Part shown: in pieces, positions 11,867-64,000 of the stretch
Numbering within the stretch: position 1 is the first letter of the stretch
Layout: the number at the start of each line of letters is the position of its first letter
Assembly: GCA_044892505.1 (NCBI GenBank)
Contig: CM097882.1
Location: 13,888,001 to 13,952,000, forward strand
DNA: 64,000 bases
From: Schmidtea nova
Taxonomy: Eukaryota
Direction: 5' to 3'
Notes under the pieces: generated by a model
What the model saw: only the letters and a program-made list of their open reading frames with translations
Told to the model about the DNA's origin: nothing
Databases searched by the model: none
Made by a program: the position numbers and the translations under genes

Positions 11867-11870
11867 TTTT

Positions 11871-29282: not shown

Positions 29283-29648
29283 TCAAATAACAACAACATT
29301 TTGGGCTCTATGCCATCTCTCCAACTGGTATAGGAGCTCCTCTTTGTCTTTCATGAGCCTCCAATTTGGGCAACATTTGCAATGTGTGCAACAAATTGGC
29401 TCCAACTTTATTGGAGGCTCTGCCATGTTCCTTTTGTGTTCTGCGATCACCTCTTTTAGGTTCACGCCGCAGAACAACCATATCTTCAGATTTATGTGTT
29501 CAGGAGCCCAGAACATCATATCTTTCATCTCCTGGGGATAGAGCCTTCCCATCATATCCAGAGCGATTTGCAACAATGTTTCTAAATAATTAAAATTAAT
29601 TAAATTATATTAAAAACATTTAGGCTTACCGTCTAGAGAGCTTGACAT
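29283..29648 (-). CDS. Mirror copy of the two-exon Cys-rich gene (3 aa differences in exon 2)
   Basis: Reverse complement of 30513-30879 with T/M, P/L and Y/H changes. Confidence 0.7.
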
Positions 29649-30879: not shown

Positions 30880-31920
30880 TACACTTTTATTTTTATTCGA
30901 TTTTGTTAGTGTTTTATAGTATTTATTTTTAGTAAAAGTCTTGTTAAATATAAGCGCAAGTAATGCTTATGTCGTACATTTATATTTTCTATTACTTTTA
31001 CAGAGTTTAATATTAATTTGTATTTTTTAAATAGCTCAAAAGATATAAATAATGTCTCAAATTTCTATGTAAATTAACTCAAAAAGTTTCACATCATTTA
31101 CTTTGTAAATTTATTACAATTCAATAAATACTGTTAACAATAGAAATAGCTCAGTTGACAAGTAAAAATCTTTAAAAAACTGAATTAATTAAAAACTAAT
31201 TAGAGTAATTAGTTGAAAATTAATGGTTTTTACACTTGTAAAGATTTCTATAATTGAATGTACAGGTCAATAATAGTCGTCGTTTTATCATTTTTTCAAT
31301 CATTTTACAATAACTTAACCCCCTTTTATATCATCATGAAGTACCCAAAATCATTGATCAATAAATGATTAGTTAAAAATATATAGAAATTGTCAATATT
31401 CTTTACTAGTTTGTATTAAATTTACTCTGAAAATAATAATTAAAATTGATTAATATTTAAGGGAAATATGCATGTTCCTGATTATCACAAGTGTATGACA
31501 CAAGCAATGTCACAAACAATACAAGTGCATAACATTTGCAATACAAGAGCATGACTCATGTATTACATTAATAACATGAAATATAGAGTAAAAGTGTTTT
31601 AGACATGAGTGATATACATCATAGTGATTTATGTCAACAATTCATACTTAAAATGTGATGAGTAACACCGTAGTTGAACCCTATTAGCAGAACATTAGTA
31701 TCAGAACCTTAGTAACAGAACATCTTTTGTGATGGTTTTTATCTGTAAAAGCTCATATTGAATATTTTAATTCATGTATCAATAATCTCAAGTATCAGAA
31801 CCTTCCTAACAGAACATTAATATCAGAACATTGGTAGCAGAACATCTTTTGTGATGGTTTTTATCTGTAAAAGCTCATATTGAATATTTTCATTCATGTA
31901 TCAATTAAACAAAAATACAT

Positions 31921-32349
31921 TTATTTTCGATGAATTAAATTTACAATAGCATAAATACTACAGAGTCCAATTGTTATTTTCAACAGATTTTTCAATCTTT
32001 CTTTGGTTTTCCTAATAGTTCTACTATTTTCGGCCAATTCTAGTAGTTTTTGCCATTGTCCATTTTCTTGAACCCAGGGACATATTTCACTTTCGATAAT
32101 CTAAAATAATATTAATAATATAATTAAATAAAAATAATATACATGTACTGACCATTGAAAATAATTTTCATAATTTGAACCCGAATTATCCATTATCTGT
32201 TTTATATACATGAACGCCACAATGACATGTGACCATTTGATTTCAGACTCAAATAACGAGTAAAACACTCGCAAGAAGGTATGAAAGGAAGAAGAATCGA
32301 GTGGCTGAAGTGGAAAAGGTCTTAAGAAGGGGAGAGTTGGATATTTAAA
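31921..32349 (-). CDS. Mirror copy of the Bcl-2-like gene
   Basis: Reverse complement of 27812-28240; the exon base at donor -1 is G>T. Confidence 0.72.
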
Positions 32350-35199
32350 TTAAATAGTGTTTAAATATTTCATTATTTGACACTTTATAAAATTTTAATA
32401 AAAGTAGGACGGAATTGAAGACTATTAAAACCAATCTGGATTTAACTAAATTAATTTATATTATTTACTTAATTAACTTTTAATATTATTAATATTATTT
32501 AATAATATTTATTTAATATTATTTACTTTTATCTAAGTAAAGAATTAAATTAAATTTTTAATTAATTAACTTTAAATAATTTAATTTAAATAATTTAATT
32601 TAAATAATTTGTTTAAAAACTGTATTTATTTGCAAAAATTTGAATAATTTATACACAAATTTAATAATTTATACATAAATTTTTATATCTTCACTATGGA
32701 AGAATTTATTATCCCTATTTACCGTGAAGCGTACTAGGGCAAATCAATATTATGTTTCAAAACTTGTTAACATGGAATCGTTACTAAATCACATTTCAGG
32801 TTATTTTTATATATAATACATATTTATTTACTTTAATAACTTTATATTTAGTTTGTGAAGATGAATTTAGAGAAAGAGGGCATATTTTTATCTATGAAAT
32901 GCTTGATTATTTATTTAGCGTTATCTAGTTAGATTTTTTATTTTACTTGAAATGTAATTTTTGTTAATTTTTAGCAATAATTTCCAACCATATGTAATTA
33001 ATTATTTCAGGCTGTCAGAAAAGTGTTCCGAAAATTCTTGAAATTCTCAACAGTCAAGTTTCACGCGATGATCAATGCAAATATCGGAATTGTCTAAAAA
33101 TGAATATCTATTGTGCCAGATGATTGAACTTTTCGAAAAAGAAATGAGACAATTACAATCGGTAATGAACAAATGAAAGGGTAAAAAGAAAAATAATATT
33201 ATTATTATTATTAATTATTATGATTATGATTAATCTTATTTATTATTATTATCAATAATATTATTATTATCAATAATATTNNNNNNNNNNNNNNNNNNNN
33301 NNNNNNNNNNNNNNNNNNNNNNNNNNNNNNNNNNNNNNNNNNNNNNNNNNNNNNNNNNNNNNNNNNNNNNNNNNNNNNNNNNNNNNNNNNNNNNNNNNNN
33401 NNNNNNNNNNNNNNNNNNNNNNNNNNNNNNNNNNNNNNNNNNNNNNNNNNNNNNNNNNNNNNNNNNNNNNNNNNNNNNNNNNNNNNNNNNNNNNNNNNNN
33501 NNNNNNNNNNNNNNNNNNNNNNNNNNNNNNNNNNNNNNNNNNNNNNNNNNNNNNNNNNNNNNNNNNNNNNNNNNNNNNNNNNNNNNNNNNNNNNNNNNNN
33601 ATAGAATAATTTTAAAGTTTTTATATTTGACCTACATAATTGTGACATAGAAAATTATCTATTTGACCTACTTTGTTGACCTTATAGTACCCTGAATGTA
33701 CCCTTAATTCTGACTTTGAAAAGTTTCGAAATTTATTATTAACCTACTTAATTTTTACATAGAAAAATTTTTAGAAATTATTATTATTATTGACCTACTT
33801 AATTTGTCCTCACATTGACCTTAAATTGACCTACTTAATTCGTCCTCACATTGACCTTAAATTGACCTACTTAATTCCGACATAGAAAATATTTTAAATA
33901 TATTATAACTTTGAATAATTTTATATTTGACCTATTTAATTCTGACATAGGAAAATTTTTATAAAAATAAAGTTGACCTACTTATTTCTGACATAGAAAT
34001 ATTTTTGAGAAAAATAAAGTTGACCCACTTTTTTCTGAAATAGAAAATTTTTCGTGACCTACTTATTTCTGACATAGAAAAATTTTCAAGTTTTTTATAT
34101 TTGACCTACTTAATTCTGACATAGAAAAATTTTTAAAATTATTATTGACCTACTTAATTCGTTGTCATAGCAACTATCAAATTTTGAAAAAATTAAATTG
34201 ACCTACTTATTCGTTGTCATAGCAATTTAAAAATATTTGACCTACTTTTTTCTGACATAGAAAAAATTTGAAAATTATATTTGACCTACTTATTTTAACC
34301 TTAAATTCACCTTAAAAATATTTGACCTACTTTATTTGTCCTTATCGTGACCTTAAATTGTCATTCTTTTTGACCTTATAGTGTCCTTAAAACGACCTTG
34401 ACCTACTCTTTTGACCTTAAAGTGTCCTCAAAGTGACCTTAAGCGAAAAGTTTGACCTTAAAGTGTCCTTAATCGAAAAATTTGACCTACATAAAAAATT
34501 TTTTTCTATGGGGGGGGTCTTGACCTATATCTGGCGGGCTCACTTCCTACTACTCCTAATCTATTTTTATTTAGATTCAAAGTAATTTTATCGGTTCAAT
34601 TTATTTTTGTTTTGTTTCCAATTTAATATTGGAATGAACCCTAATTTGTTGCCCAACCAAAATAAATTCAATAAAAACTAGTAAAAATATAAAATATATC
34701 ATTCTTGAGGTTATTTTCATGAGACATATAAAAAATTCGAATAGGGATTTCATATAAATTCAACATCAAGTAAAATTTCATACTTGTTATAATTTTATAG
34801 TTTTTAATATTTCATCTTTAAAATTTCCAATTCTTTTTAAAAATGTTCCAAAATGTTTTTAAAACACTGCCTTTCCATTTCTATATAGGGTTTTTCTCAA
34901 CCTAAAAATGCTTTAAAAACATTTTTTATTATTTTAATCAATTTATTGGGTTATGGAGTTGTTGGTGAAATTGAAAAGTTACCAATTAATTCTCTGAATC
35001 CAAAGCGTGCTTTATTGATCAATAAAATGACTATTAACAACAGGAAAAATTACACTGGTACAACCAATCAATAATATGAAATAATTATACAGTGATTATT
35101 ACGACACTTAGAAGAATAGCACTAGTGTAGAATATCTCCGTCTAACGATCACTAGTTACTGATTTAAATTCAACAATGAATAAAAAAAACTAATTTTTC

Positions 35200-42289: not shown

Positions 42290-44296
42290 TGTTGGGCAAA
42301 AACCACAAATGTTTTAATAAAGCGATAACCCCATAGGTAGAGAGCGCGCAAGATTTAGTTTCAACCCAAAAATCCATTTAAAAATCCAAGCGATTAAGTG
42401 GAAAACACCAAAAGGTGAAGTGGACTCAAAACACATCAACCAGTAGAGAACGCGCTAGCTGGGAGTCTAAAAGCCCTTACATTGAAACCTCGAGAAAAAT
42501 CAAATGCCATCAAAAGAAGAACGTTTAAAAGTTAGAATAGGCGGAAAACCCATTGAAAATACCCATAAAGAACGGAATTGTGTTATAAAACCTTCATGCA
42601 GAAAAAATTAACAGAATTTTAGCCGAAAATTGTGATTTTAGCAAAATATTTCACATTAACAATAAAAAGAACTAATATTGATCGAAATATCGTAAATTAA
42701 ATCAAATCGAACAAATTTCGATTCAAAAACAAAAATTTGGAATTAAAATAAATTATTTGTGTTTTGCAAAAAATTATTACACAAAAATATGGATTTAATT
42801 TTTGGAAAATCATTAGAATTCATTTAGAAAAATTAAAAGGAAAATTCTAGAATAATTTGTTTTATTACACTGGTGAAGGTGACGAAAATCGATGGTATAT
42901 ATACCGCCATCAAAATGGCAGAAATCAGAATTGGTGAATAATTTTCTGTTTAAGAATTTTTGCAGAATTGATTTTGAGAATCTAGTAAAAATTTTTGTTT
43001 GTGGAAAAAAAGAAAAATTCGGTAAGAAACATTCTTTTGTTCGGTGCGGGGTCACTGAACAGCATGCCCTTTCAGTTACCCCGTACCTGGTATTATTTTG
43101 TAAATTTTATTGCCTATATGTATCATAATCAGTTTTAATTATTATATATTTAATGAAAGTTATTTTGTTTTTTTTATTATTTTGATTTTAATCTCGTCAT
43201 AGGTTCCCATGATTCACGGAAATTCGTTTTAATATTTATTACACAAAAATAAAATTGATTAAATTTTTTTTTCTTCCGTACCCCCTGAAGCCTGTGTCTG
43301 GCCTTGCGCCGATCGGGTGGAAGTAGCCTGAGCGGATCGCTGGTTCGATACGTAAATCGATCAGTCCATATTTCCGAGTCCAGGTGAATAGCCTAACCAT
43401 CCATGATCACTTCATCCCAACTGGGGAACAGTGGCTTGGCCAAAGGCAAGGTGTTATATTAATGATATTTAATTTATAATAAATGTAGTTTATTTGAATT
43501 TATAATTTCCGACATATTTATCATCTAAAAATTAATACTACATGAAAACGTGAAAACGAATCTCTCCAGCAATGTCTTTTCCATTAGGAAAAATAATTGT
43601 ACAAGAACATTTTACTCATCGTCGCCTTCACTCTCGCAACAACCGTCATCTTATCCGTAAACACAAGTCAATGGAAGCTAATGTTTGAAAAGAATCATAT
43701 GAAATAATGCTCAAAACTGATATAATGATCATGAAATGAAATGAATTTAGGACAAGTATTGATTGATCTGAATTAAAACTCATTCATTATATAAATAAAT
43801 TTTCTCTGGTGAATCTTGTTTTCGGGAGCCTGAAGTTCCTAAGTGAATTGTCCCGAAAAATTCGCGCGCACTTGGGTTGGGAAATTCATGCTCGGACGAA
43901 ACCGAAATTTACTTTACTTGATATTAAAAATATTCGTTGAAAAATTTATAACTTATTTTTATTTTTATTTAGCATATAAAAAAACTTTTTAGATTAAATG
44001 CTTATTTGGATTTCTAAATTGATGGATAAAAATTTATTATTATGTGGATTTCGTTTTGATCAAAAAATAAAAATTTGCTTTTTATTATATTGAAAAAATT
44101 TTTTTATAATGAAAAATTGTAAACCAAAAATTTTCCTAATATTGTTATGATATAAAAGATTTTGTCATTTTATAAAATTTCTAAGAGTTTATAAATCAAA
44201 ACTTATACTGCCACCCATAAAAATTTTAAATCGAGAATATTATTATTATTTTATAAAATCCAAAATTTCGAAATTTTATAGAAAGAATTTTTACTA

Positions 44297-44381
<85 letters not shown>

Positions 44382-46080
44382 TTAAAATATAAAAATTCGA
44401 ATAAAAAAATGTATATTATAAAAATTAGAAATTTTATTATTATATTATTCTCATAAAATTATAAATTTAAAATTTATAAAAAGTAATATAAAAATGTATA
44501 TTATAAAATTAGAGATTTTATTATTATATTACTTTCATAAAATTATAAATCTAAAATTTATAAAAAGTATTATAAAAATGTGTATTATAAAAATTAGAAA
44601 TTTTATCATTATTTAATTTTCATAAAATTATAAATTTAAAATTTGTAAAAAGTATTATAAAAATTATTATTATTATTTTAATATAAAATTATTATTATTA
44701 TTTTAATTTTAAAAATATTTTATATAATTTATATATAGTATATTATAAATACCCCCACGATATCTCAAAATCATAACACATCCCTATTTGCAAAAATTTA
44801 CATCCATTTCATTCAATAACATTTCCCATACTAATACACAAGCAACATACATTTAAAATACAATATACACACATACACAGTATCATTTATTAGCATTCAA
44901 TAGTTATATACACACAGGCAAACCATACTGAAAATTCTACACAGTTATGTTAGTCTGCATCACACATCCAGAAAAACCCTACAAAAATTTCATTCACTTA
45001 TATCTATCATTCAACCATACCATAAAAAATTGAATATACCCAGCCAAACTTATTACAATCAAATAGGCCTTTTACATTATAGTTTAATTTACAAAATTAC
45101 ATAAAAATAATAAATAATAAACGAAAAAGAATAAAAAACTAATATCAAAAGAAAAATTTTATTAATCAAAATTGATAGACTTCATTCCGTTTGAGGAATA
45201 AAAACCCCCGACAAGGATTTTTCTTGTTTGTGGTTCTGAAGAGGCCGGTTCCTCGTATTCGCTTTGGAAATTTTTCTAAAATTGTTCAAAATAAATTATA
45301 ATTCTAAAATAATCAAAATTTTACTTGGTCGATAGAGTTGGCAATTTTGCTTCGTAGGAGCTGGAGTTCTAGTTTTTTTGACCCATTTTGGGTGGGAGAA
45401 TTTTCCTCTGACTTCGTAGTTTCCGGGGAGATCCATTTCTTGTTGATCTGAACTTTAGAACTCATTATTTAATCAATTTAGTGAAAAATTCAGAAACTTA
45501 CATTTAAAATTAATATGATTTTTAAATTGAGTAAATTTGTCCTTTTGATTAAATTAGCAATTTTAAACAAACGGAAATTTTATTTTTATTATTTCTAAAC
45601 TCGATAAAATTACGGTAATAATTAGAGTTTTTCTTAAATTTTAAATGCAGATTAAAATTTTTCTATAAAAATAAAGTATTTTATGTATTAATTATCATAA
45701 ATTGCAATATTGGTAAAATTTAAGGTTATATTAGTGTTTTCGATGCTCGGAATAATTTATTTGGATGCAATAATGAATTTATAGTTATGTAGAGTGTTTA
45801 TGTTGAATTTCCGATAAAATTTTGTTGAATGCTTATAGATAAATCATTAAAGGAGGGACAAAATTGGCATTAAACCTTCTATCGGTAGCCCTTGGACCCA
45901 GGAGATATTCGGTCAATCATAGTTTCGTATTGACGACGCTCACTGATTGCGAATACCCACTCACTTGTTACAGTACCATCGTTACATAGTGACGGGTAAC
46001 AAGATGGTTATTTCAATGTTTTATGTGTTGAGTTGTTGATGAGAGCCATAGTAACGTCAAGGTCATATTGACGATCAACA
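42290..46080 (+). repeat. Putative 5' LTR (~3.8 kb, TGTTG...CAACA)
   Basis: The first 1151 bp match 62843-64000. The right end is inferred from CAACA 18 nt before the PBS. Confidence 0.7.
44300..44378. repeat. (TA)n microsatellite inside the LTR; others at ~21288-21317 (TA)n and ~47231-47286 (TAT)n
   Basis: Seen directly in the sequence. Confidence 0.95.
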
Positions 46081-46098
46081 ACCCACCATATAAAAATT

Positions 46099-46116
46099 TG
46101 GGGGCTCAGCCGGGAT
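46099..46116 (+). promoter_or_regulatory. Primer-binding site, tRNA-Pro
   Basis: TGGGGGCTCAGCCGGGAT matches the canonical tRNA-Pro PBS TGGGGGCTCGTCCGGGAT at 16 of 18 positions. Confidence 0.8.
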
Positions 46117-47288: not shown

Positions 47289-48532
47289 CATTTTAGTTAT
47301 TATTNNNNNNNNNNNNNNNNNNNNNNNNNNNNNNNNNNNNNNNNNNNNNNNNNNNNNNNNNNNNNNNNNNNNNNNNNNNNNNNNNNNNNNNNNNNNNNNN
47401 NNNNNNNNNNNNNNNNNNNNNNNNNNNNNNNNNNNNNNNNNNNNNNNNNNNNNNNNNNNNNNNNNNCGTGAGTGGTACTGTCGATATCATAATTATTATT
47501 AGCGATATTGGTGTTATTTTGACCGTTAATTATTAATTGAGAATGACTGAGGTATGACCCCTGTAATTTTATTTTGTTGGCAAAGAAGGACATGGAAATT
47601 ATCGGGTCTAAAAGAGATAACAACGGAAATGGATCAATACGTAAATTGTTTGTTTTAATTGATACAATGATACAGTAGAGAATGAATGATATAATCTAAT
47701 AAGTTTGGAGTTTGAATGTTGGGAAAAATTAGACTGTTGAAGTCAAAAATGATGCATGATAGTGATATTGAAAGGTTGATCGCGACTCAATTCGGAAATC
47801 GAAGTCGGGAATAACTCTAAAATCTTATGAAATCATAAATTAATATTTAACAACGACTTAAAAACGAATATAATGATATAGAATCAAACAAGAAAACGTG
47901 AGACTTAGCGCAAATACGAAAATTTTGAGATACACAAAATTAGGAACCTAGTAAAAGGAGGTGTTATATGACCATAAGATATGGGATGGAGTTCACGCGA
48001 ATCGCTTAGAGAATGAATATTCGAATACACAAAAATTGCTTCCAGTAAACGAAAAATTACCAAAAATTGCGAATACCGTAAATAAAAAATATAATTATTT
48101 TAAAATTGATAAAAAGTGTAAAAATTGTGAAAAAAATGTGTAAATAAATGTTTAATTATTTTTTATTTAGAAAATATTAGTATATTTAAAAAAAAATATA
48201 AAAAAAAATCATAAAAATTATGTACATAATGGCTGATTATTTTATTTATATTATTCGAAAAAATATCGAATATGGACGAATGGAGAAAATTATAAAAATA
48301 TAAAAATATAAAAAATATAAAAATATAAAAATATATGTATAAAAATGCCTGAATATTCTGTTAGTAGTAGTTTTGAAAAAATACAAAAATATATAAAAAT
48401 ATATAAAAAATTATAAAATTTGTGTACATAAATATTGAAGTTTTTATTATCTATTTTCGTTCAAATTTTAATAAATGGTTGACTCATGTTGATTCAAAAA
48501 GTTGTAAAAATCAGTCATCATGAATATTTTAG

Positions 48533-49015
48533 ATGGAATCAATTGAGCATATTTTACTACGAATCGAGACGTTTTTTAATTTTGAAAATGATCCATTGCT
48601 GGTGTTGAGCGAGAAACTCGAACGAGTGAATGAAATAAAAGATGAATTATTGTTGAATCCTAGACCACAACCTGAGAATCTGATAGTGATTTCAGGAATT
48701 GTAGGAACAACAAACGATATTTCGTTAGAAACGGTTTATGAATTACAACGATTGCGACTGAATAATCCGAATTTCAATCTAAAAATACAAGAATGGATTG
48801 GTAAAATCGATAAAATCATGGATAAGCTAGAGAGATCGATAAATCAACAGATCGATTTGTTTGAAAGATGTTATATTTGTCGACAAAGAGAAGCGAACAT
48901 CTTATTCATGCCATGTGGGCATTTGCGTTATTGACAGCTGTGCTCGAGAGAAATAAAGAGATGCGTAATCTGCAAACAGACAATTGATGACAAAATCGTC
49001 GTATTTTGTTCATAA
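48533..49015 (+). pseudogene. IAP/MDM2-type C-terminal RING protein with TGA at a Cys position
   Basis: CYICRQREANILFMPCGHLRY*QLCSREIKRCVICKQTI. Confidence 0.85.
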
Positions 49016-50020
49016 AGAATGTCATTCAAAATAAACGTTTTGGTCGTGTTGAACTTCGTCGATCATCCAATACTCCAAACCGTCGTAAAAATTAAATAAA
49101 CAAAGAACACTAGGTAATTAATGACTGAGAATCGTGTAAAAAACATAACAAGTAACGGCTAATGCCGAAAAATCAAACATTAGGAAAATGGGAATCTGTG
49201 ACAAAGTTACTTTTCTTTTCTTTTTGAATTTTCTTTTTTATTATTATTATAAATCCTCCTCATCATTATTATATTGATACAAATTTCATTACTATAAGTC
49301 TTCCTCATTACTGTTATTATATTGATTATCATTATTATATCGACCATTAGGACGAGCAATAAGTAGCGTTATAAAAGTTGATATTATAAGGAGAACCCTC
49401 TGAAATTAAGTAGGAAATGAGTGTCTGAGTAGAAAACGGGAAAATAGTACAAAAATTCATAACTGAGCTATCAAAAGATAGTACGCCAATTTTTTTGTTG
49501 TTGTTGTTGAAAAATTAGTAGACAACAAACGGGGAAAAACTTGATCACCCTGAGGAAAGAGAGTAGAATAGGATATCCATCGCACATGTTGACGAAATTT
49601 CGTTTGTGACTGATCATCACAAATGGCGAAACTAGTTGATGCGATTATTTTACGATTTTGAATTAGGTGAAAGGGTAACCCGTAATGTTCGTCTTATACA
49701 CCAGTTTGCCAAGGCATGATTGGTACACTGAGGTAGAGGACAGTAACATGAATAAGGAGAAAGTTGCTGAGAAAATCAGATGCAGATCTTAGAAAGTCGA
49801 AAGAGTAAAAAGCGAATTTCGATGATTACAGTAGATGATAGTATAATAAGAAAAGATTCTACCATGGTAGTTAAGGAATTAATTCGTAATTGAAAAGTAG
49901 TAGAACAATTTGAGAAAAACAGCCAGTAATAGCGAATTTATTTCTGAAATTGAAAATTGAGAATAGGGAAACGAGTGAATAAATAGTATAAAGAGAATAA
50001 TTGAAGACGGCCGAGAAAAA

Positions 50021-50421
50021 GTGAGAGACTTTGAGAGTCCAGATAATTGAGAAACTTTGAGAGTTCAGTGATAGACTTCGAGAGTACAGATAATTGAGAA
50101 ACTTTGAGAGTTCAGTGAGAGACTTTGAGAGTCCAGATAATTGAGAAACTTTGAGAGTTCAGTGAGAGACTTTGAGAGTCCAGATAATTGAGAAACTTTG
50201 AGAGTTCAGTGAGAGACTTCGAGAGTACAGATAATTGAGAAACTTTGAGAGTTCAGTGAGAGACTTTGAGAGTCCAGATAATTGAGAAACTTTGAGAGTT
50301 CAGTGAGAGACTTTGAGAGTCCAGATAATTGAGAAATTTTGAGCGCTCTGGGAGAGACTTTGAGAGTCCAGATAATTGAGAAACTTTGAGAGTTCATGTA
50401 TGTGAGAGACTTTGAGAGTCC
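50021..50421 (+). repeat. 47-bp tandem array (~8.5 copies), itself a dimer of ~23-bp subunits
   Basis: Unit GAGACTTTGAGAGTCCAGATAATTGAGAAACTTTGAGAGTTCAGTGA. Confidence 0.95.
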
Positions 50422-51282
50422 AATGTTTGTGGATATTGTTGAGAAATTTAGGAAAACGTTTGAGAGATAGAATTAAATAAAACTGCGCAGTTAAAATTTT
50501 GTTATGACAGAGAGAAACGTTGAACGCGAATACCTAAGGTGTAGTAATATAAACCGTTAACAAGAGCAGATAAAAGACATCGAGAAATACTTAGGAAATA
50601 AAATAATGGCCATGAATAGATAACGAACAAGACATTTTAACCTCGAATACCGAGATGAGTGTGAAAATAAGTCGACATGATCANNNNNNNNNNNNNNNNN
50701 NNNNNNNNNNNNNNNNNNNNNNNNNNNNNNNNNNNNNNNNNNNNNNNNNNNNNNNNNNNNNNNNNNNNNNNNNNNNNNNNNNNNNNNNNNNNNNNNNNNN
50801 NNNNNNNNNNNNNNNNNNNNNNNNNNNNNNNNNNNNGATACGACCATATAGATAATTATTACGAGATATAGATAATTTAAAATTTGAGCTCAAAGTAAAA
50901 GGGGGGTAAATAGCGTCGATGAAGAAGCGATTTTTATTTAGATTGTACAACAGATCAAAGCCAAGCCAAGAGATAGTCAAATCAATCAGTTATTGAAGAG
51001 GTATATATAGAAGAAAAGAAGAAAAAGAAGTCTTATTGAAAAGGAAAGAAGTAAAAGAAAATAAATCAAAGATGATCCAATTGAAGATAAAAGAGAGAAA
51101 TTAGCAATCGATATTAAACACAAATTGATAATATTACCAAACCAACCAAGTTCGTAAAGTCGAAAGATAAAGAGTCAAATCTATTAAAAAACGACGAAAG
51201 GAAATTACAAAGAAATAAAGCTGATAAATAAAGAAATAAAATCCACAATATTAGAAAGTTTGTAGCCGATTTTCAGAAAGAA

Positions 51283-54200
51283 ATGGAGGAGAATCAGAAA
51301 GTTACCAGTGTAAACTCGGAAGATAATTTATTAGAAGAAGAGCAGAAAATAACCAGTCCAAACGTAGAAGATAATTTACAGGAAGAAGAAAAAGAAGTAG
51401 AAACAATGAATATGCAACTACAACAGGATATCGAAGAAAAAGTAAATAAAATGATAACCGAATTATCAGACGTTGAAATTGAAAGAAAGGGAAATGTATA
51501 TGAATTTTCAGTAAAAGATATGGAGGGAGAAGAAAAGAAGAAGTTTGTGGAGAAATATAACCGAAAAAGAAGAGAAAGAAGAAGCAATGATGATACATGT
51601 AGCATGGACGAGAAAAGGGATGAATCTATGACAATCAAATTAGAAGAAGTGGCACAAAGATTGTTAACCATTACCATAGAAGAAATGACGAAAATGAATC
51701 AAAAGTCGGAAGAAAAGAGGAAATCAGCGAAGCTCGAAAGAATAAAACAAACAGAGACGTCAAAGACCGAACGATTAATCAGTAACCTAAGCAAGAGTGC
51801 AGGAAATCAATGTGAAACAACAACTGAATTACTAAAATGGGTTATAAAAAATAGTGCAAATATATCAAACATGAGATTGATAGTGAGAGAAATCGAGAAA
51901 TGCAGAGTTTATGCCCTTGGTATTCAACACAATTTGATGACATCATGAGAAAATGGAAACAACTAGAACAAACAAACGATGATCCACAGATGTGTAAATT
52001 AAAAGTTCAGTTTCCGAGTCTAGAAAAAATAAAGATGAATGTATCATTAACAACAAAGATCAAAGAGATAAAAGAGAGATTACCATTTAACTTACCATTT
52101 CACTTAAAATATGATGGAGAATCGCTGGATGATGATATAGAAATCGGTGTAACCCCGATACAAATCGAAACAAGTAATAAATTAACTGTTGATAAAATTT
52201 CAGGAAGCGAGTTGACCAGAAAAGCAAGAGGTGAAGATAATCCCGAAACAACGATAATTGCAATGATGAAAACTCCAGCTGGTCCAACACTTACAATTAA
52301 CATCGAAGTTAATGGCGTAAAAGTAGACGCAATGATAGATACTGGCGCAAATATATCAGCAATAGATATCGATATGATACCAGAAATGTTACGGTTATGC
52401 ATCGAGAAAACATCAGTAGACGTAATAACATGCAGCAAAGAATCTGTGAACATCGGTGGAAAAATATGGACGGACATCGAATATAAAAATGTAAAAATAT
52501 CAACTTATTTGACGGTAATAAAACAACTGGGTGCCTCATGCATTATTGGAACAGACTTAATACCAAAATTGTTAAAAGGATCTGTAATCAATTTGAATAC
52601 GATGAAGTTGAAACACCAAATTGAAGAAAATTGCACACGAGAAACAATAATAGAACAATCAAGTCAAGAAATGACCAGAAAAGGACAAGTATGTATGTTT
52701 CGAGAGAATACAAATGACGATTGGCTACATCGTATATTAACTACGAGCAGAAAAGTAAATCAGCCAACAACAATATTTGAACAACCTAAGATAGTTGACG
52801 ATGTAAAAATGGAGCACCGCAAAAAGATGGAATTGATCATTGAAATTACCAAAGAAATCATGCCAGAATGGTCAAAAAGTAAAGATCTATTCGAAATATT
52901 AGGAGGAGTAAGCCTAATGGTTGAGGAATATGCCAAAGGAAATGAAACGACAGAAGCGATGAATACCATAAAAGAAAGATTACCAATATTATTTACAATT
53001 GCCAGTTTTAAAGATGAGATACCATTGTACCACGCAATAAAAAGTGGGAATGAACAGAGAATGTTTGAAATCTTAAACTCATGGAAAAGTGCAAGCAACA
53101 TACCAACACGAAAAACTGGAAAGATCAAACACCCTTGATGATAGCAATTGAAAAAGGAGGATCCAGGAAACTCATAGCAGAACTGATGAGAACCGGATCA
53201 AGTTTTAAAGAAAGAGATGATAAAAATGAAACGGTGTTATCATATGCAGTGCAAGCAAATAACCATCAAATAATCAAATATATTATGTCAAATGCGACAG
53301 AAGAAGATATTGAAGTGCTCAGTTCAGATCCAAATCCATTAGTAAATGCAGTGAACAAAGATGCCGACGAAACAACAGCAAAAATGATTAAATGGTTACA
53401 TCCAGTTACGCATGAAGGAGTGATAAATGTCAATGACAGATTTGAAGATGGTGAAAATATAATCATGAAAAGAGCCATGAAAAGAAAATGGAAAATGTAT
53501 AAAACGATTAAAGCATTGCTGCAAAGACCTGATTTTAGATTCACGAACAACAAAAAAGAAAAAGAAAGAATTGGATCTAAAAGACATGAATTATATCAGC
53601 GAGTCATCATATGGAAAGAAAATATAAAAGAAAGCAGAATTCAACGAATCTGGAACAATGCTAAAGATGAAATAACCAAGAGAGCAAATATAAAAGCCGA
53701 TGCAAATGAAATAGCTAAAAGATATGAGGAAATAATAAAATTAATAAATGTCGAGGACGACATTTTAAATAGAGCCGAGGATGGTTCTGATGATCACAAT
53801 AAGCCTGACGATGAAGATGAAGAAAATGATAACAACAAAACAAAGAAAGATGACAATGAAAGTATCAACAGAAACAATGACAAAGATGAGAAAGACGATG
53901 GAAAAAGCAATAACGATGAAAAGGGAACGAAAGTGATGAACATAGCCAAGAAACTTCAAATTATGAAAAACGAACAGCATGTCTACATAAAACTCGAATT
54001 AAAGACATAATATTGCTGATAATGATGCTGTCAGCATTGAAAGGAACGGAAGCTGATGATAAAAGAAAACCAGTACAAGTATTATTACAAGGAGCAGATA
54101 ATGAAGAAGCATGTTGGAGTAGCATCAAATTGCAAAGTAAAGGAGATAATCCAGTCAAATGCCAACGAGCAGAAGGAGGAGAAATCCAAATAAATGGATT

Positions 54201-54390
54201 GAAGCGGGATGCAAAATACAAAATCTGTGTTTACAAAAAGAAAGCATCACAAGAAATGTTTAGAACACTCGTATGTCAGACAGTAGCACATAATGGTTTA
54301 AAAGTCATCCAAGAAAACATAAAAGTCATAGTAACCGACGAGCCAGATGAGAACATCAGAGTGTCGTCGAAACGCAAGTTGTCAGAGTAA
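51283..54390 (+). pseudogene. Element B polyprotein: helical/Gag-like region, ubiquitin-like, retropepsin, ankyrin repeats, acidic linker, signal, FN3-like; three single-base frameshifts
   Basis: VSLTTKIKEIKERL..LKYDGESLDDD (Ubl); AMIDTGANISAI; PLYHAI, QTPLMIAIEKG, TVLSYAV (Ank); IILLIMMLSALKGTEA; INGLKRDAKYKICV (FN3). Confidence 0.8.
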
Positions 54391-54542
54391 CCAGTGGAAG
54401 GAACAGTGTATATAGTGTATAAAATTATATCGTATTATAAAAGTAGAATATTTTTGTGTATAATAAAAATTTAAAAATCCAACAAATGAATACCTAAAAA
54501 CTGGGAAAAACAAATGATAATATTGTGTAATTATTGACAGAA

Positions 54543-55178
54543 ATGAATCCGAACAACGAGAATCAAAGTTATCAAACATCAGTTCCAACGATCAATGAAA
54601 CATCAAATCAAACTCAGTTTCCAGAAGATACCAATATACGAGAAAGAGAAGGGTCACTGCAAACCCCAGTAATCGAAAATGAAACGCAAAATCCAACAAT
54701 TGACGATAGAAACCTGATATACCAAGTCGAAATTCCACTATTTGATGAAACCATGAACCCAATTCAAACGACATTCGTATTAAATCAACAACCAACAAAT
54801 AGCCAGACTCAATCAATATCAGCTCCGATGGTTTATCAGCAGACAATGACGCAAGAGTTATCATGGAAAACGCAATGTGAATTATTAAGCAGGATGTTGA
54901 ATCAAGCCTATGCACAATGGAAAAACGAACAAGCTTTGTTAACAGAAAGTGTAAACAGAAATTTATTATATCTTGCTAAAATGGAAGAACAACAACAAAT
55001 GATAATCCAAAAAGATCAGAGAATTGAATGGTTAACAAGACATACAGAGTGGCAAACAAACGAAATTAGAAGATTGAATGAGACGCGAGAAGAAGTTAGA
55101 GCATGGTATAACTGGTTAGACAATTTTCCAGAACCGGTTCGAGAACCTGACTCGACGGGAAGGGATGAACTATTATAA
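54543..55178 (+). CDS. Accessory ORF, Q/T-rich N-terminus + coiled coil
   Basis: Intact ~211-aa ORF after a CAG acceptor. Confidence 0.7.
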   Translation: MNPNNENQSYQTSVPTINETSNQTQFPEDTNIREREGSLQTPVIENETQNPTIDDRNLIYQVEIPLFDETMNPIQTTFVLNQQPTNSQTQSISAPMVYQQTMTQELSWKTQCELLSRMLNQAYAQWKNEQALLTESVNRNLLYLAKMEEQQQMIIQKDQRIEWLTRHTEWQTNEIRRLNETREEVRAWYNWLDNFPEPVREPDSTGRDELL

Positions 55179-55277
55179 AAATTTAAAACCAGTGTAAATA
55201 AAATGTAAAAATGTGAATATGAATAAAAACTTGGTATAAAAAAAAACAAAACGAAAAAAATTGTAAATTATTTTAGA

Positions 55278-56681
55278 ATGCAGACCGAGAATCAGCATAA
55301 ACAAGAAGAATTGATCGAACTATATCAGATACTACAGAGACAACGGATAGAACCAACAGAATTTCAAGAAAGATTTAAATGTAAAGTATGTAGAAATTTA
55401 TTGATAGAACCCAGACAAACTGAATGTGGATGTCGAATATGCACTAATTGCGTGATGAAAATAATACGAACTAAACAGAAGCTATGTCCTGAATGTGGTG
55501 AAGCAATAATAGATCAATTTGACCAAACCAGACCAGATATCGCAATGAATCGGGAAATAATGAACGCAGCAACAACCTGTCCAAATAAACCATGTGTATG
55601 GAGTGGGCCAATAAAATGGATCGCCAAACACCTTTATAATTGTGATGATACGAAAGCCAAATGTAAGTGGTGTGAGGAAGAAATGTTGAAGAAAATCAAA
55701 GACAGTCATGAGGAAATGTGTGAACAACGACAGGAAATCTGTGAGTTTTGCAACGAAACAGACGCTTGGATAGTGTTAAAAGATGAGCATTGGAATATAG
55801 AAGAAGGGCAAGTATGTGACGAGTATGAAGGTAATTGTAATCAATGTGGAATGGCAGAAAACGTGAAGCTAAAAGAACATTGGGAAATATGCGAAAAGAA
55901 GCCTACTGCATGTCCACTAAAATTATTCAATTGTAAAGTGAGATTACCAAAAGAGGAAATACAAAAGCATGTAGACGAAAATAGTGTAAATCATTTGAGA
56001 ACCGTTGTGGAAGCTATTGGAGCAACCGCACTGGTAATTGGAGAAGCCAACACAGAAATAAAATCACACAAGATCATGATACAAGAGATGTTGGATACGA
56101 GAGGAAATTTTGAAAGAATAAGAGAACAAATGATCCAAAAAATGAAACTATTAGACCAGAAAATAGCAGAAATATCAACAATCCAACAAAGATTGGAAAG
56201 CATATTGCCAACAATGGAAGAACTACCCGTCACACCCTACTATTGGAAAATCACAGAATTTACAGAGAAATTGAGACTAGCAAGAGAAGGAGGTCAACGT
56301 GTATGGACAAGTCCACCTTGTCACAGTTGGAAACATGGGTACAAGCTTAGATTCAAAGTATATCTAACGGGAGACGGACTAGGAGCCGGAACTCATTTAT
56401 CTGTATATTTTCAAATATGTAAAGGAGATTATGACGATTGGTTAGAATAGCCCTACGATTGCGATATAACTATGATGATCGGAACAAAGGAAAACAACGT
56501 TCGGGAAGTATTCAGACCAAACTTGAGGAAGGTAGAAGCAGCTTATAGGAAGCCGATCGAAAACTACAACGTAGCTGTAGGAAATCCACGTTTTATTGCC
56601 TTACATCTATTAACCATAGAACAATCATTGTATTTGGTAAATAATATCCTGTATCTGATTATCGAAGTAAGGAAGCCGTAG
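55278..56681 (+). pseudogene. TRAF: TRAF-family protein (RING, zinc fingers, coiled coil, MATH); TAG at 56448
   Basis: CKVCRNLL...CGCRICTNC...CPEC; WKITEFT...SPP...GYKL...YLTGDGLGAGTHLSVYF...GDYDDWLE*P; continues in frame to YLIIEV. Confidence 0.92.
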
Positions 56682-56908
56682 TGAAGATGGAAAAAGTGTA
56701 AATATGTCTGTATTATAATGAAGTATCTGTATCATAATGTACAAAATAAAATTAGAAAATCACAAAAAACATAAAAATTAAAAAGAAATATAAAAATGAG
56801 AAAAACCAAAAAAAAAAAAAAAAAAAATCAAATATAAAAATCAAAATTTTGTAAATATAGAAAACAAAAAATTGTGAAAAATATAATGGAGAAAATATTG
56901 TAGATACA

Positions 56909-58078
56909 ATGACTGGAAGGAAGATCGTGAAAATACGAGAAGATGACAGATCATTCAAGAGTTTATGCGAATTAATGAAAAGAGATAAAGAAAGGATGTC
57001 AAAACCAATTTCTTCAGAAATAATTTATTGTCAATTTACACGAACAATGCCGAATGTTCCTAAGGAAAGGAGTTATGGAAAATTCAAAATTATCGATGAA
57101 ACGTTGAAAAACGAGAACCGAAGATATATAACCTTTTTACAACAAGACAATTTCTATGAAAAGCAATACAGAAAATTCGCCAAAGAGGGTTTGTATTTTG
57201 CAGGGACAATTGAGAAACCCGATAAAGTAATCTGTGTATTTTGCAGAATTGAAATAGAACCTTGGAGAATTAACGATGATCCACTAACAGAGCATAGAAA
57301 ACTTTCACCCACATGCCAGTTTGTGTTAAAGGCATGCGAAAAACCAAGAAAACCAGCAACAATGAACAATGACGAAGAAGATAAACCCAAAATAGTAACG
57401 ATAACTTCGACAGGCCCAGCAAAGATACGATTCATAGAAGTTGACCCAAAATATACGATTAATGGGAGAACTAACACTTTTGTAGATAAAAAGATGGGTA
57501 TCAGATTAGCAACAGAAGGTTTTTATGCAATAAATGAATCAACCACTGAATGTTCAGAGTGTTGAATACAATATCAATTACCAAAAGAAGAAGGAAAATA
57601 CCTGAAACACAACGAATATTGTAAATATGGAGAAGAATTATATGAAGACGAAGAACCGATCAATTATAAAAACCCAGAGATGCCTGTTAATGAATTATTA
57701 GTAGAAAAGATATTAGATGAACCACGAACTCAAAAGGCAATGAAACGCACCGGCAAAAGCGAAATATTTATGAAAGAAGTCATCAGAGAGAGATTGAGAA
57801 GAAATGGAGAAACATTTGGATCAACCCTAGAATTCTTTAAAGCTATAATACAGTTCACCAGAAAATCCCAAGTTGTCAACCCAGAATCATGTATCAAGAA
57901 AGTTATATTAAATAAACACCCCTGTTCAATCTGTTGGATAAAGAAAGTGGAAGTTATTCACTTACCATGTGGACATTTGTTAGCATGTGAAAATTGTAGC
58001 AATAAATTGAGATTGTGCTCAATGTGCAGGAAACCGGTCGACAAACGGATCAAGGGATTCCGTTATGCCGATCAATAA
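56909..58078 (+). pseudogene. IAP: Inhibitor of apoptosis: BIR-BIR-UBA-like-RING; TGA at 57563 in BIR2
   Basis: FAKEGLYF...VICVFC...W...DDPLTEHRKLSPTCQF; LATEGFY...CSEC*...H...C; CSICW...LPCGHLLACENC...CSMCR. Both parts share a frame. Confidence 0.93.
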
Positions 58079-58212
58079 TCCAATCAAACAACTTTGTAAA
58101 TAAATTGTAAAGATTTTAATTTCAATCGATGTATACAAGTATTATTTTATAAGCATGAGCAACAAAAAATGTATAAACAAAAGGAAATTACCCATGTTAT
58201 TATTATTTCAGA

Positions 58213-59760
58213 ATGAATATACAACAATTGATATGCATCCTAGATCAGGAGATGGCAAAAAGACAAGAGCAACTAAATCAAATGAGAAGCTATGAACAAA
58301 GAATGGAAGCCATCCAAGAAAACGTCAGAGTAATTGAGAAACGAACCCAAGAAATCAACCAAATAAAAGAGGAAAACGAGGAACTGCGAAAGATAATAAA
58401 CGATAAGGCGCATATCGAAGCTGAACTACAAAACTATAAACGAGAGTACAGGGAAATGGAGAGAAAACTCGAGCACGAACAACAAAAGTTAGTACCGTTG
58501 AAAAATCAAGCGAGATTAAGAAAAGATGAGCTCGAAACCTATAAAAGAGATACCGAAACAAGGTATGACAACACCATAAGATTCTACCAGCAACAACTCG
58601 AAAGTGAAAGGAACAGATATGAAGCCATGAAAAAGAAATGGGAAAAGTGTCGAGATGAAGCATTTGCCTTGAGAGGACAACCTAAAAAGAAGCTTAAAGT
58701 CAGAACAAGAAACATTGAACCTTAAAGCGAACAAGAAAAGATCATTAGAAAAGTTAAAGCAGAGGCTAGAAAATGGAAACAAGAACACCAAGATTTATTA
58801 GAAATGGCTCGACACAGAAAAATGCTACATGAAGAATTATTAAGACGGAGAGACGTTCAAATCGAAGCTCTGAAAGAGGAATGTCATTGGTATGCAGACA
58901 TACGTCATGAGGAAACGGAGAAACTCAGAAAAGAAATATTCCAGTTGAAAACGAGCGGACAGTTCAGAGAAAGAAGCATAAGGCATCAAATAAAGTGGCT
59001 AAAAGAACAAACCAGAACATGGAAAAAGACCTGGAAAAGAACTCGAGACGAACTACGAGAATTCCCAAAGAAGCTGATGTCAATAAATGAAGCAGAATTG
59101 TGGGAAAATGCAGAAAAGCAAGAGATAGAAAACAAAGAATTAAGAAGGCAAGTTCAATTAAAAACTGAATGGAATCAAAGGAGAATGAAATTTACCAGGA
59201 ATCAAGAAGCTCGTATCAAATATCTGGAATTTGAAAACAGGCAATATGATCAACAGAAGAATATGGATGATAGAAGTATTGAAGAACTGACAATCGAATT
59301 GACTATTGCAAACCGTGAAGTCAACGGATATCGAGGTACAAATACTCATAAAGAGATTGTCATTCAACACCAGCGACGGCAGATAGAAGAGACAAAGGCC
59401 GAATGTGAAAAAGCGATCCAGCAATCCCAAAAGGAAATCGAAATGGCTATCCAAAGTTTGGAAGAAAACCGCCAAAACTATGAAAGAGAAATTGAAAGGC
59501 TGAAAAATATGGAAAATACGAGAGAGCTCGAGATAGAAAAAGAACAGCTGAGTGAAGAACTCGATTATATGACATATTTGCTAGATGAAGAGATAGAAAT
59601 CTCAAGAACCTTGCGAGAAAGAGTTCAGAGCCTACAAAATCAACCTCCAATCATTCTATGGCCACTATATCCAACACCAATACAACCTGTACATTTGGAG
59701 CAAGAAAATCCTCAAATCGAAGATGAAGGGTTCGGAGAAATTGAAGAGACGTTTGTATGA
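58213..59760 (+). pseudogene. ~515-aa coiled-coil accessory ORF with one in-frame TAA (58723)
   Basis: Two same-frame ORFs with an open linker; heptad-rich E/K/Q/R composition. Confidence 0.75.
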
Positions 59761-60024
59761 GTAATAAAAGTGAATGTAAAGTGTAAAAAGAAATTGAAAT
59801 GTAGTGTAAAAAGAAAACGTTGTAAAGAAATGTAAAAAGAAAAAGTTGTAAAATATATCCAAAAAATTAAATAAAAAGCAGAAAAAATAAAAAATTCAAT
59901 AAAAATTAGAAAAAATGAAAAACAAATAAAAATTAGAAAATGATAAAAATGATAAAAATGATAAAAACAAAAACAAAATTAATAAAACTATAGAAAAGAG
60001 TTATGATTATTCAAATTATAGAAA

Positions 60025-60600
60025 ATGAGACTATTGAAGCAAAGATCAGAACCAGAACAACAGACGATATCAAAAGAAAGATTCAAAAAATGGAAGAGAG
60101 CAACAGAGCAATATTATCAAGACCAAATAGATCAATTGAAGGAAGTAATGAGCAAAGATAGAAAATATATCGCACAAATGGAACAAAAGTGTGAGACGAT
60201 GGAAATAATCAAGAGAGAAAATTATCTATTTCGCCAACAAAATGGTCTTACTCAAAAATATTGCGACAGACAGAAGCAAGAGATTGACAGACTCAAAAGG
60301 GAAATAAGCAGAGAACAGAACACTGATAATAAAAGGAGAATTAAGATCGAGTCATTACAACGATCCTTGAAGAGCAAACAGAAAAAGATTATCAAAAGAG
60401 AAAAACAGATAATAAAATTGAAAAGTGAAATCATCGAAGCAAAATTTGATACGTTCAAAGCAAAGAAAGCTGTAGAAATTAAAACGGCAGAAAATTACGT
60501 CCTCAAAGAGCAAAGGCGAAAAGAAGCAGACGAGATTGTAAAAATGGGTAACTGGAAGCCAGAAAGTCCGGTAAAGCAAAATGAAGAGATGAAAGAATAA
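60025..60600 (+). CDS. Basic coiled-coil accessory ORF (191 aa)
   Basis: Intact ORF after a TAG acceptor. Confidence 0.7.
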   Translation: MRLLKQRSEPEQQTISKERFKKWKRATEQYYQDQIDQLKEVMSKDRKYIAQMEQKCETMEIIKRENYLFRQQNGLTQKYCDRQKQEIDRLKREISREQNTDNKRRIKIESLQRSLKSKQKKIIKREKQIIKLKSEIIEAKFDTFKAKKAVEIKTAENYVLKEQRRKEADEIVKMGNWKPESPVKQNEEMKE

Positions 60601-60696
60601 AAATATATCTAAACTCATGTAAATATCCCTGTAAAAATAAAAAAGAGAAAATTTGAAAAATCATTAAACAAATTTGAATCTATAAATCTATAGAAA

Positions 60697-61521
60697 ATGA
60701 GCAATCTAATGAGGATCGTAGAAATCATCATGATATTTATAATTACAAACTGCCGAAGCGAAGAAGCATTGAGTCAATGTCAAGCAAGCCATCCATTTAG
60801 AAGATCCGATAGCATTTGTGTAAGCTATCAAAAAATTTGTCGCACCAGAAATGAGGAGTGTCAGCAAATCCATCTACAATGTCAACAATGTCCCCAATCC
60901 AGAGAAGATTCAATCACCATCCTTAAACAATTGAGAAATGAAACTCAACAATTAATCCAACTACAAATCTCTTTAACCAAAAGGAACAATCTTCAACTAA
61001 AGAAACAGCTAGAAAACCAATCATCTTTCAAACAGTTGACAACCGAACTGAAGAAATTGAGCAAGTTAATAGAAAAATCTGTAAATAATAAAGAGGAAGT
61101 TAACGAGGAAAGATCAAGTTTTACCGAAGAGTTAAATCAAAAACTGAAAACTCAACTTCATCAGACCGAGAGAATTATAAAACAATTGATATCATCCGAA
61201 AAGCAGAAAGAGATTATCCCTAAGCAAGGATCAACCAACGAAGACGTCAGAGACCGAGAAGCAGCCATCACAGTCATTCTACAAGGCATCAGTCTTTTCG
61301 CAGTCATAATGATCCTTAGCATTGTTGCATCAATCGGATTAGAGAAAATAAAATTAGAGAAAGCGAAAATCCAGTCAAATACAATCAAACGAATCACCCA
61401 TGAAGACAACAACCCGTCAGAAAATTTTCTAAGATCAATATTTGAAGATCCAGTTCCAGAACAGCCTAATCCTAAGACATCTACAACCTCGGTGCAGATG
61501 AATTACTTTTATAAACAATAA
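60697..61521 (+). CDS. Type I membrane protein: signal, Cys-rich segment, coiled coil, TM
   Basis: MSNLMRIVEIIMIFIITNCRS; six Cys; TM ITVILQGISLFAVIMILSIVASIGL. Confidence 0.75.
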   Translation: MSNLMRIVEIIMIFIITNCRSEEALSQCQASHPFRRSDSICVSYQKICRTRNEECQQIHLQCQQCPQSREDSITILKQLRNETQQLIQLQISLTKRNNLQLKKQLENQSSFKQLTTELKKLSKLIEKSVNNKEEVNEERSSFTEELNQKLKTQLHQTERIIKQLISSEKQKEIIPKQGSTNEDVRDREAAITVILQGISLFAVIMILSIVASIGLEKIKLEKAKIQSNTIKRITHEDNNPSENFLRSIFEDPVPEQPNPKTSTTSVQMNYFYKQ

Positions 61522-61721
61522 TATGATCTTATTCCTCATTTGACAATTCATGTATTCATCTATTCTATTAATTTTTTTTTGTTGTATTTTCATCTTGAAC
61601 AATATTTCATTATCATTAAATCATAATCCTGTGTAAAAATCGTAACGCCCTTGTAAATAGAAAAAATTATTGTCTATCGTCATTATTCAATTTCTTTCTA
61701 TTAGAAACACAAAAATCAACA

Positions 61722-62525
61722 ATGAAATCGTACCGAAAAGTTGTCCTAATCGCCATGATCACAACAATTTATTGTCATCTCGAAGAAACCCAGAAATCAA
61801 GCCAATTAAACCCAAATCAACAATGTAATAAAGAACCATTTGAAATCTCTTACAACAAACAACTATCCGAAAAGATCGAGCAAGTCAAAATCGAAATTCA
61901 AAATACCCTCTTCAATCAAAATGATGAAATTTCAGATCTAAAGAGAATTGCAAGGATAAAATGAGCCGACTTAGCGATCAGAGATATATATGAGGATATT
62001 TTTGATAGTGATCGAGAAACCCGTGACGCAATAAAAAGTCTCACCAAAGAACTTAAAATGAATATAAACAAGTTAATCGATCAGCTAACGAAAAATTCAT
62101 CAAGTCCGAAATGCCTGAAACAAATCCAGCAAATTCATCATAACGTGTCCCAGCAGATTTCCGAAGTAGGAAACCAAACGGCACAACAACTGAGAAAGGC
62201 TTATTACGAAAACCTGGCATTTATGAATAAAATCCACGATCACATAAACGAGATATCGAAACCAGATAACAATCAAGACAGAGACAAGTGCAGAATATCC
62301 CTCCTATCATCCGAACGAATTCTCGATATCTGCCTGATCATCCTTAACTTTTTCCTAATAATCGGAATTTGTGGTATAATGTGGTTAGGCTTGACCGCCA
62401 CAAGAATGATGAATAACATGATCTCCGAACGATCCAGAAGAGAAGATGACAAGAAGCAGTTGATCAATACCGAGTCATTCAAACTATTCCAGTCGAAGAT
62501 CCAACCAATCCAATCCAAAGGTTAA
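61722..62525 (+). pseudogene. Second type I membrane coiled-coil protein; in-frame TGA at 61962
   Basis: Signal KVVLIAMITTIYC; same frame across the stop; TM ICLIILNFFLIIGICGIMWLGL. Confidence 0.7.
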
Positions 62526-62842: not shown

Positions 62843-64000
62843 TGTTGGGCAAAAACCACAAATGTTTTAATAAAGCGATAACCCCATAGGTAGAGAGCGC
62901 GCAAGATTTAGTTTCAACCCAAAAATCCATTTAAAAATCCAAGCGATTAAGTGGAAAACACCAAAAGGTGAAGTGGACTCAAAACACATCAACCAGTAGA
63001 GAACGCGCTAGCTGGGAGTCTAAAAGCCCTTACATTGAAACCTCGAGAAAAATCAAATGCCATCAAAAGAAGAACGTTTAAAAGTTAGAATAGGCGGAAA
63101 ACCCATTGAAAATACCCATAAAGAACGGAATTGTGTTATAAAACCTTCATGCAGAAAAAATTAACAGAATTTTAGCCGAAAATTGTGATTTTAGCAAAAT
63201 ATTTCACATTAACAATAAAAAGAACTAATATTGATCGAAATATCGTAAATTAAATCAAATCGAACAAATTTCGATTCAAAAACAAAAATTTGGAATTAAA
63301 ATAAATTATTTGTGTTTTGCAAAAAATTATTACACAAAAATATGGATTTAATTTTTGGAAAATCATTAGAATTCATTTAGAAAAATTAAAAGGAAAATTC
63401 TAGAATAATTTGTTTTATTACACTGGTGAAGGTGACGAAAATCGATGGTATATATACCGCCATCAAAATGGCAGAAATCAGAATTGGTGAATAATTTTCT
63501 GTTTAAGAATTTTTGCAGAATTGATTTTGAGAATCTAGTAAAAATTTTTGTTTGTGGAAAAAAAGAAAAATTCGGTAAGAAACATTCTTTTGTTCGGTGC
63601 GGGGTCACTGAAAAGCATGCCCTTTCAGTTACCCCGTACCTGGTATTATTTTATTAATTGTAAATTTTATTGCCTATATGTATCATAATCAGTTTTAATT
63701 ATTATATATTTAATGAAAGTTATTTTGTTTTTTTTATTATTTTGATTTTAATCTCGTCATAGGTTCCCATGATTCACGGAAATTCGTTTTAATATTTATT
63801 ACACAAAAATAAAATTGATTAAATTTTTTTTTCTTCCGTACCCCCTGAAGCCTGTGTCTGGCCTTGCGCCGATCGGGTGGAAGTAGCCTGAGCGGATCGC
63901 TGGTTCGATACGTAAATCGATCAGTCCATATTTCCGAGTCCAGGTGAATAGCCTAAACATCCATGATCACTTCATCCCAACTGGGGAACAGTGGCTTGGC
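62843..64000 (+). repeat. 3' LTR (partial, truncated by window end)
   Basis: Near-identical to 42290-43440 (two substitutions and one 7-bp indel seen by eye). No canonical PPT upstream. Confidence 0.85.

Follow-up and report, generated by a model that had tools for sequence, protein, structure and literature searches.

The stretch analysed here (the window) comprises 64,000 nucleotides (nt) of the Schmidtea nova genome (GenBank assembly GCA_044892505.1, contig CM097882.1, positions 13,888,001 to 13,952,000 of the forward strand), and it contains most of element B, a retroelement with long terminal repeats (LTRs) that carries nine genes in a row. At seven of the nine gene starts the AG lying just upstream is a working splice acceptor, used by the spliceosome in RNA that was later reverse-transcribed: exact GT...AG segments ending at these acceptors are missing in other copies of the element, giving nine distinct junctions. 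These splicing scars are what the analysis adds, Burro elements, to which element B is related, having been published already. The original prediction, made from the letters of the window, had described a polycistron resolved by splicing. The use of the acceptors is borne out at the seven sites, and its resolution into one message per gene is a step that we infer. Going by the layout of promoter, leader and acceptors, we lean towards one message per gene, each probably formed by cis-splicing an ATG-free leader in the 5' LTR to one acceptor at a time. The acceptors, genes and spacers are the following.

48531..49015, + strand: acceptor AG 48531-48532 and gene 1, RING finger (ATG 48533; in-frame stop 48932-48934 in the window copy)
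51275..54390, + strand: acceptor AG 51275-51276 and gene 2, SUMO-like, retropepsin, ankyrin (ATG 51283; four pieces in the window copy)
54539..55178, + strand: acceptor AG 54539-54540 and gene 3, 211 amino acids, no Pfam match (ATG 54543)
55275..56681, + strand: acceptor AG 55275-55276 and gene 4, TRAF (ATG 55278; in-frame stop 56448-56450)
56902..58078, + strand: acceptor AG 56902-56903 and gene 5, BIR-RING inhibitor of apoptosis (ATG 56909; in-frame stop 57563-57565)
58210..59760, + strand: acceptor AG 58210-58211 and gene 6, coiled-coil-like by eye (ATG 58213; in-frame stop 58723-58725)
60020..60600, + strand: acceptor AG 60020-60021 and gene 7, 191 amino acids (ATG 60025)
60692..61521, + strand: acceptor AG 60692-60693 and gene 8, 274 amino acids, signal-peptide/transmembrane-like by eye (ATG 60697)
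61703..62525, + strand: acceptor AG 61703-61704 and gene 9, signal-peptide/transmembrane-like by eye (ATG 61722; in-frame stop 61962-61964)
within 54391..61704, + strand: seven spacers (96-264 nt), each holding 2-8 upstream ATGs; Pumilio-type TGTAHATA words occur in them

Six other copies of the element have nine genes each. The additional open reading frames starting in the window at 51900, 53081, 54022, 57680, 58804 and 62058 are fragments of genes that are broken in this copy and unbroken in others.

All nine start contexts quoted in the original prediction are present in the window, and an acceptor does stand just before every start, with gaps between YAG and ATG of 0, 6, 2, 1, 5, 1, 3, 3 and 17 nt for genes 1 to 9 (up to 7 nt in eight cases and up to 17 nt in all nine). 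The claim that this consistent position is not due to chance also held against shuffled spacers: dinucleotide shuffles of the 95 nt upstream of each ATG gave expected counts of 0.88 (within 7 nt) and 1.84 (within 17 nt), and neither observed count was reached in 200,000 simulations. Only 17% of the other ATGs in element B have a YAG within 7 nt upstream. The spacers had been called short, which is true before genes 3 to 9, whereas genes 1 and 2 each come after about 2.3-2.4 kb of non-coding DNA. The AG is retained at 52 of 54 sites in six other copies, a count that says little as these copies are about 96% identical. The same pattern appears in sister family C (L035-L038), where YAG lies within 7 nt at six of the seven accessory starts (0.94 expected), the seventh having AAG; proteins of families B and C share 27-52% identity and their spacers give no DNA alignment. 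This count excludes the family C gag-pol start, which has no YAG nearby and is preceded, by eye, by a T-rich AG some 570 nt upstream with no ATG between. A further T-rich AG is found upstream of gene 2 at window position 50940, in a context resembling, also by eye, the site before the family C gag (L035:8151). The base following the acceptor AG is A at all nine sites; one may speculate that with a G in this place an ATG would arise ahead of the start, as some leader variants end in AT.

Since a retroelement passes through RNA, spliced genomes can re-integrate, and the genome was scanned for the first bases of each gene preceded by anything other than AG, the matches then being read. For gene 2, a 41-nt segment (51236-51276) is absent from 27 of the 30 loci read (157 matches). 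This segment starts with GT in 12 out of 12 pattern-matched loci that retain it, with AT in the window copy and with GC in one copy. A 124-nt segment (54417-54540) is missing before gene 3 in one of three matches (L112), and 43 nt (55234-55276) before gene 4 in three of nine. Two donors had been joined to the acceptor of gene 6, at 58107 (105 nt removed, 16 of 20 matches) and at 58096 (116 nt, 3 of 20), the twentieth match fitting donor 58096 following another rearrangement. Before gene 8, 75 nt (60619-60693) are absent from 2 of 30 loci read (93 matches), the other 28 retaining the AG, and gene 9 has again two donors, 61653 (52 nt, 14 loci) and 61552 (153 nt, 11 loci), among 30 loci read (48 matches), with two further loci off by one base. 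All these scars, eight of the nine, are local (41-153 nt). The ninth, at gene 7, removes 7,531 nt (52491-60021) in one of 22 matches, a copy with both LTRs; its donor lies inside the protease gene, and the junction, found in this single copy and located within an A run, skips four other acceptors. Two sets of candidates were discarded on reading: TRAF starts with a non-T at -3 (three matches) were all point changes, and so was the only gene 2 match, among those listed, with C before the exon.

Every one of the nine distinct junctions starts with GT, for which a hand calculation gives a chance of about 2e-13 (GT frequency 0.039, the searches having fixed the 3' end only). A survey of deletions was also made in 179 loci, which had been chosen for altered acceptors and are thus not an unbiased sample. 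It returned 28 calls. Seven of them read GT...AG, and every one of these stops at the acceptor of a gene start; ten more are junctions at acceptors that the script misplaced or read against the altered donor of the window copy; and among the remaining 11, which are unrelated deletions, there is no GT...AG. Slips between homologous bases do not fit either, given that gene 2 keeps both flanking repeats and that eight A stand at the gene 7 junction, the number that exact splicing leaves.

The candidate source of a common leader lies in the 5' LTR, and the features that bear on it are listed here together with the ends of the element.

42290..46088, + strand: 5' LTR, 3.8 kb, TG...CA, repeated directly from 62843 on; it comes after the first copy of a 4-bp target-site duplication
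42896..42918, + strand: predicted promoter core, TATA box and a word that we take to be YY1-like; kept in all LTR variants seen, function presumed
42919..43021, + strand: predicted ATG-free leader exon, with a start site probably near its 5' end; the first ATG after the core lies past the donor
43022..43027, + strand: candidate common 5' splice donor GTAAGA, predicted; first GTAAG after the core in 7/8 LTR variants
46099..46116, + strand: primer-binding site, tRNA-Pro-like, presumably
62843..64000, + strand: 3' LTR, running past the window to L011:3590; the second copy of the 4-bp target-site duplication follows

In seven of eight LTR variants the first GTAAG comes 97-309 nt after the core without any complete ATG before it, and the sequence after the core differs among variants; shuffling reproduces this layout in 2-4% of trials per variant. 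Transcription would start from the LTR core near 42900 and the leader donor at 43022 would be spliced to the acceptors, with the unspliced RNA serving as the genome and being copied by the enzymes of an autonomous relative. The 3' ends would form at poly(A) sites in the spacers or the LTR, and the spacers may place the messages under Pumilio-type control. Cis-splicing is favoured because seven of the eight variants have this conserved donor downstream of the promoter, with an ATG-free leader in between, and because cis scars occur at seven of nine sites, while cis-splicing has been reported to be strongly prevented at flatworm operon acceptors (PMC12582326). The two to eight ATGs per spacer, for their part, speak against scanning or reinitiation. 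The original prediction had left open the choice between cis-splicing and spliced-leader (SL) trans-splicing; the evidence leans towards cis, on account of the donor after the ATG-free leader and of the 7.5-kb cis junction at gene 7.

Besides this layout, the LTRs sort into variants that have the promoter core in common and leaders that cannot be aligned (window 42919-43900 and other LTRs), which suggests module swapping. T-rich acceptor-like sites inside the LTR, at 43971 and 43991 of the window, recur in LTR variants with no long open reading frame behind them; in family C, two genes and their acceptors lie within the LTR. A depletion of sense-strand donors was unconvincing (four GTAAG, against 7.7 expected under one model and 16.5 under another).

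Several results weigh against a common leader. All the donors seen in scars are weak local sites and none is the leader donor; they would reflect occasional mis-splicing onto strong acceptors. The scars represent amplified lineages, so that their counts are not a measure of splicing rate, and at gene 7 the other 21 of the 22 matches are copies with an altered AG. No spliced copy appeared among the six matches for gene 1 or the six for gene 5, in a search that is blind to donors whose exon ends in AG. As to the leader itself, no junction from it to a gene or to the LTR was present among the genomic copies searched: the window-type donor with a nearby ATG gave three matches, all in unrelated DNA; two donor contexts with an altered next base gave none; the LTR-internal acceptor-like site gave 18, all point changes; and a leader junction at the two LTR genes of family C gave none. 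For genes beyond the primer-binding site no such genomic copies are expected, as leader-spliced messages would lose that site. The L040-type LTR variant has no GTAAG within 1,500 nt, and the eight variants are related and hence not independent tests. Finally, AATAAA, although present in six of the seven spacers, is not enriched there (12 seen, 14.1 expected).

Other readings of the array can be set against this evidence. The view that chance or past gene capture accounts for the acceptors, and polymerase slips for the deletions, is largely refuted and we give it very little credence: AG is a common dinucleotide (0.080 in the composition check that gave the GT frequency) and copies with an altered AG exist and spread, but the GT at all nine junctions, the two repeats kept at gene 2, the A-run length at gene 7 and the retention of the acceptor pattern in a distant sister family all contradict it. 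It is also improbable, if less so, that the spacers are small introns, or that the genes have internal promoters and short 5' untranslated region (UTR) introns, where local splicing strips upstream ATGs and no long-range leader takes part. The local character of eight scars would agree with this, as would GTAAAT, which both families have in excess in their spacers (7 against 2.3 expected in B, 7 against 1.4 in C) and provides the donor of three scars. Yet the donors are weak, and a single spacer can use more than one (genes 6 and 9 have two each), GTAAAT is contained in the more strongly enriched word TGTAHATA, and no second promoter-core word was found inside the gene array of element B. Moreover, reinitiation after long open reading frames is inefficient in animals.

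The more serious competitor, though we regard it as rather unlikely, is an operon resolved mainly by the host SL trans-splicing, in which the RNA is cleaved and polyadenylated in each spacer, leaving the acceptor behind it free for the SL, and the scars are occasional cis mis-splicing. Planarians have SL trans-splicing (PMC10899757), and the array resembles flatworm operons in its same-strand genes, its acceptor before each start and its seven spacers of 96-264 nt, within the 300-bp limit given for such operons (PMC12582326). An acceptor without an upstream cis donor is said to be sufficient (PMC8629364), a state that cleavage would yield, and AATAAA or ATTAAA occurs in 7/7 spacers. On the other hand, these poly(A) words are not enriched, the conserved LTR donor would have no role, and the cis scars at seven of nine sites, even if their counts are not rates, differ from flatworm operons, which consist of host genes and where cis-splicing at the acceptors is described as strongly prevented (PMC12582326). 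No SL-type junction turned up for element B in the four genomic searches that could have detected one. Of lesser weight, flatworm SLs are reported to end in AUG (PMC12582326), which would be out of frame at five of the nine starts, and homologous genes of families B and C do not agree in this frame. A retroelement that had adopted the host SL machinery, alone or beside cis-splicing, is likewise rather unlikely; it would amount to a nine-gene operon of apoptosis and signalling regulators, built of modular cassettes (acceptor, gene, Pumilio-type 3' UTR) that come and go as whole units.

The word TGTAHATA is about tenfold enriched in the spacers, with seven occurrences against 0.7 expected in element B (54391-61704) and seven against 0.5 in family C (L035/L037/L038). 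It matches the Pumilio-binding element (PMC7796173), and from this composition we infer that the spacers of element B act as regulatory 3' UTRs. Reading the TGTA words mainly as CFIm sites was rejected, since UGUA is reportedly absent from the poly(A) sites of planarians (PMC5068929). Three scar donors sit within a TGTAHATA word, which may itself serve as a weak donor.

Element B spans window position 42290 to L011:3590 (24.3 kb) and, as far as its sequence tells, is a non-autonomous Burro-like LTR retroelement, which we file as a relative of Burro and not as a full member. Its two LTRs are 99.7% identical over 1,732 bp, hence the insertion is young, and the primer-binding word recurs in family C. 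Of 1,793 candidates in a DNA search, 40 copies were scored, at 97-100% identity and including the window's own copy, and the 19 bases at the TRAF start have 1,196 exact matches in the genome, or some 1,200 copies. Pfam recognised RING, SUMO-like (weak, E 0.008), retropepsin, ankyrin, TRAF and BIR-RING domains, and gave no match to gag, env, reverse transcriptase (RT), RNase H or integrase, the protease being the only replication enzyme matched. Burro/GYPSM1 elements are giant gypsy-like planarian LTR retrotransposons, above 30 kb when complete and present in thousands of copies (PMC6431247). Element B is like them in size class, copy number and cargo (RING, TRAF/MATH, BIR, ankyrin, SUMO-like, protease, Smc-like coiled coil, the last by eye in element B; PMC6431247) and has LTRs, a primer-binding site and a 4-bp duplication, yet it measures 24.3 kb without replication genes against more than 30 kb. 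The Burro polyprotein (gag-env-PR-RT-RNase H-IN) is absent from it except for the protease (PR), and its cargo consists of nine separate genes, whereas that of Burro is described as domains of the polyprotein (PMC6431247). In sister family C the full replication set is present, with zinc knuckles, PR, RT, RNase H and integrase (IN), and env forms part of the polyprotein.

In complex retroviruses such as HIV-1 and the foamy viruses, one leader donor is joined to alternative acceptors just before the accessory starts and the unspliced RNA is the genome. Element B shares the acceptors before start codons and, on the reading that we prefer, would share the common leader and the unspliced genome. 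It differs in that its candidate donor is part of the LTR and thus precedes the primer-binding site, and in that the genes do not overlap and are split by 3' UTR-like spacers, with no Rev-like factor identified in it. The adenovirus major late unit is a long transcript with a shared non-coding tripartite leader and five proven poly(A) sites (PMC4346872). Element B would likewise draw many messages from one transcript through a shared leader, with several 3' ends if the spacer poly(A) sites are used; the adenovirus is a DNA virus, and in element B both the leader and internal poly(A) use are predicted.

Burro elements are known for their size and cargo, and the review section devoted to them is silent on how accessory open reading frames are expressed (PMC6431247). 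In the literature searched, which excluded supplements, Repbase, subscription papers and the original Burro paper, we found no report of Burro splicing, nor, within the same limits, of an LTR element that contains an SL operon. With nine acceptors, a single gypsy-type element would match the level of complex viruses, and this would explain gene gain, as a new open reading frame would need just an acceptor in front. If the SL were used, this would be an operon inside an LTR element. A high-copy retroelement family also records its own splicing in the genome, so that splice sites can be tested without RNA.

Some further observations concern copies of element B and its surroundings. One copy (L041:3857-5302) has an extra gene of 482 amino acids without Pfam match, preceded by an acceptor-like site of its own, and lacks the TRAF and inhibitor of apoptosis genes. 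Copies about 20.7 kb apart at G000:C1:449.97-450.01 Mb and C3:80.23-80.25 Mb fit tandem arrays with a shared LTR. A 47-nt tandem repeat lies upstream of gene 2 (window 50020-50420), and family C has tandem repeats at the equivalent place. The 3' flank of element B (L011:3591-4500) contains, by eye, a decayed transposase-like sequence with a motif that we take to be of mariner type. Elsewhere in the window, positions 1-19900 hold element A, of a Burro-like family with Bcl-2, a fusion glycoprotein, PR, RT and IN, interrupted by a minus-strand Ulp1-RT element that adjoins a 5S rRNA gene (4734-4852); in the same region the DNA from 2848 is repeated at 11871. A long near-perfect inverted repeat occupies 25460-34554, with arms of more than 4 kb and a short centre.

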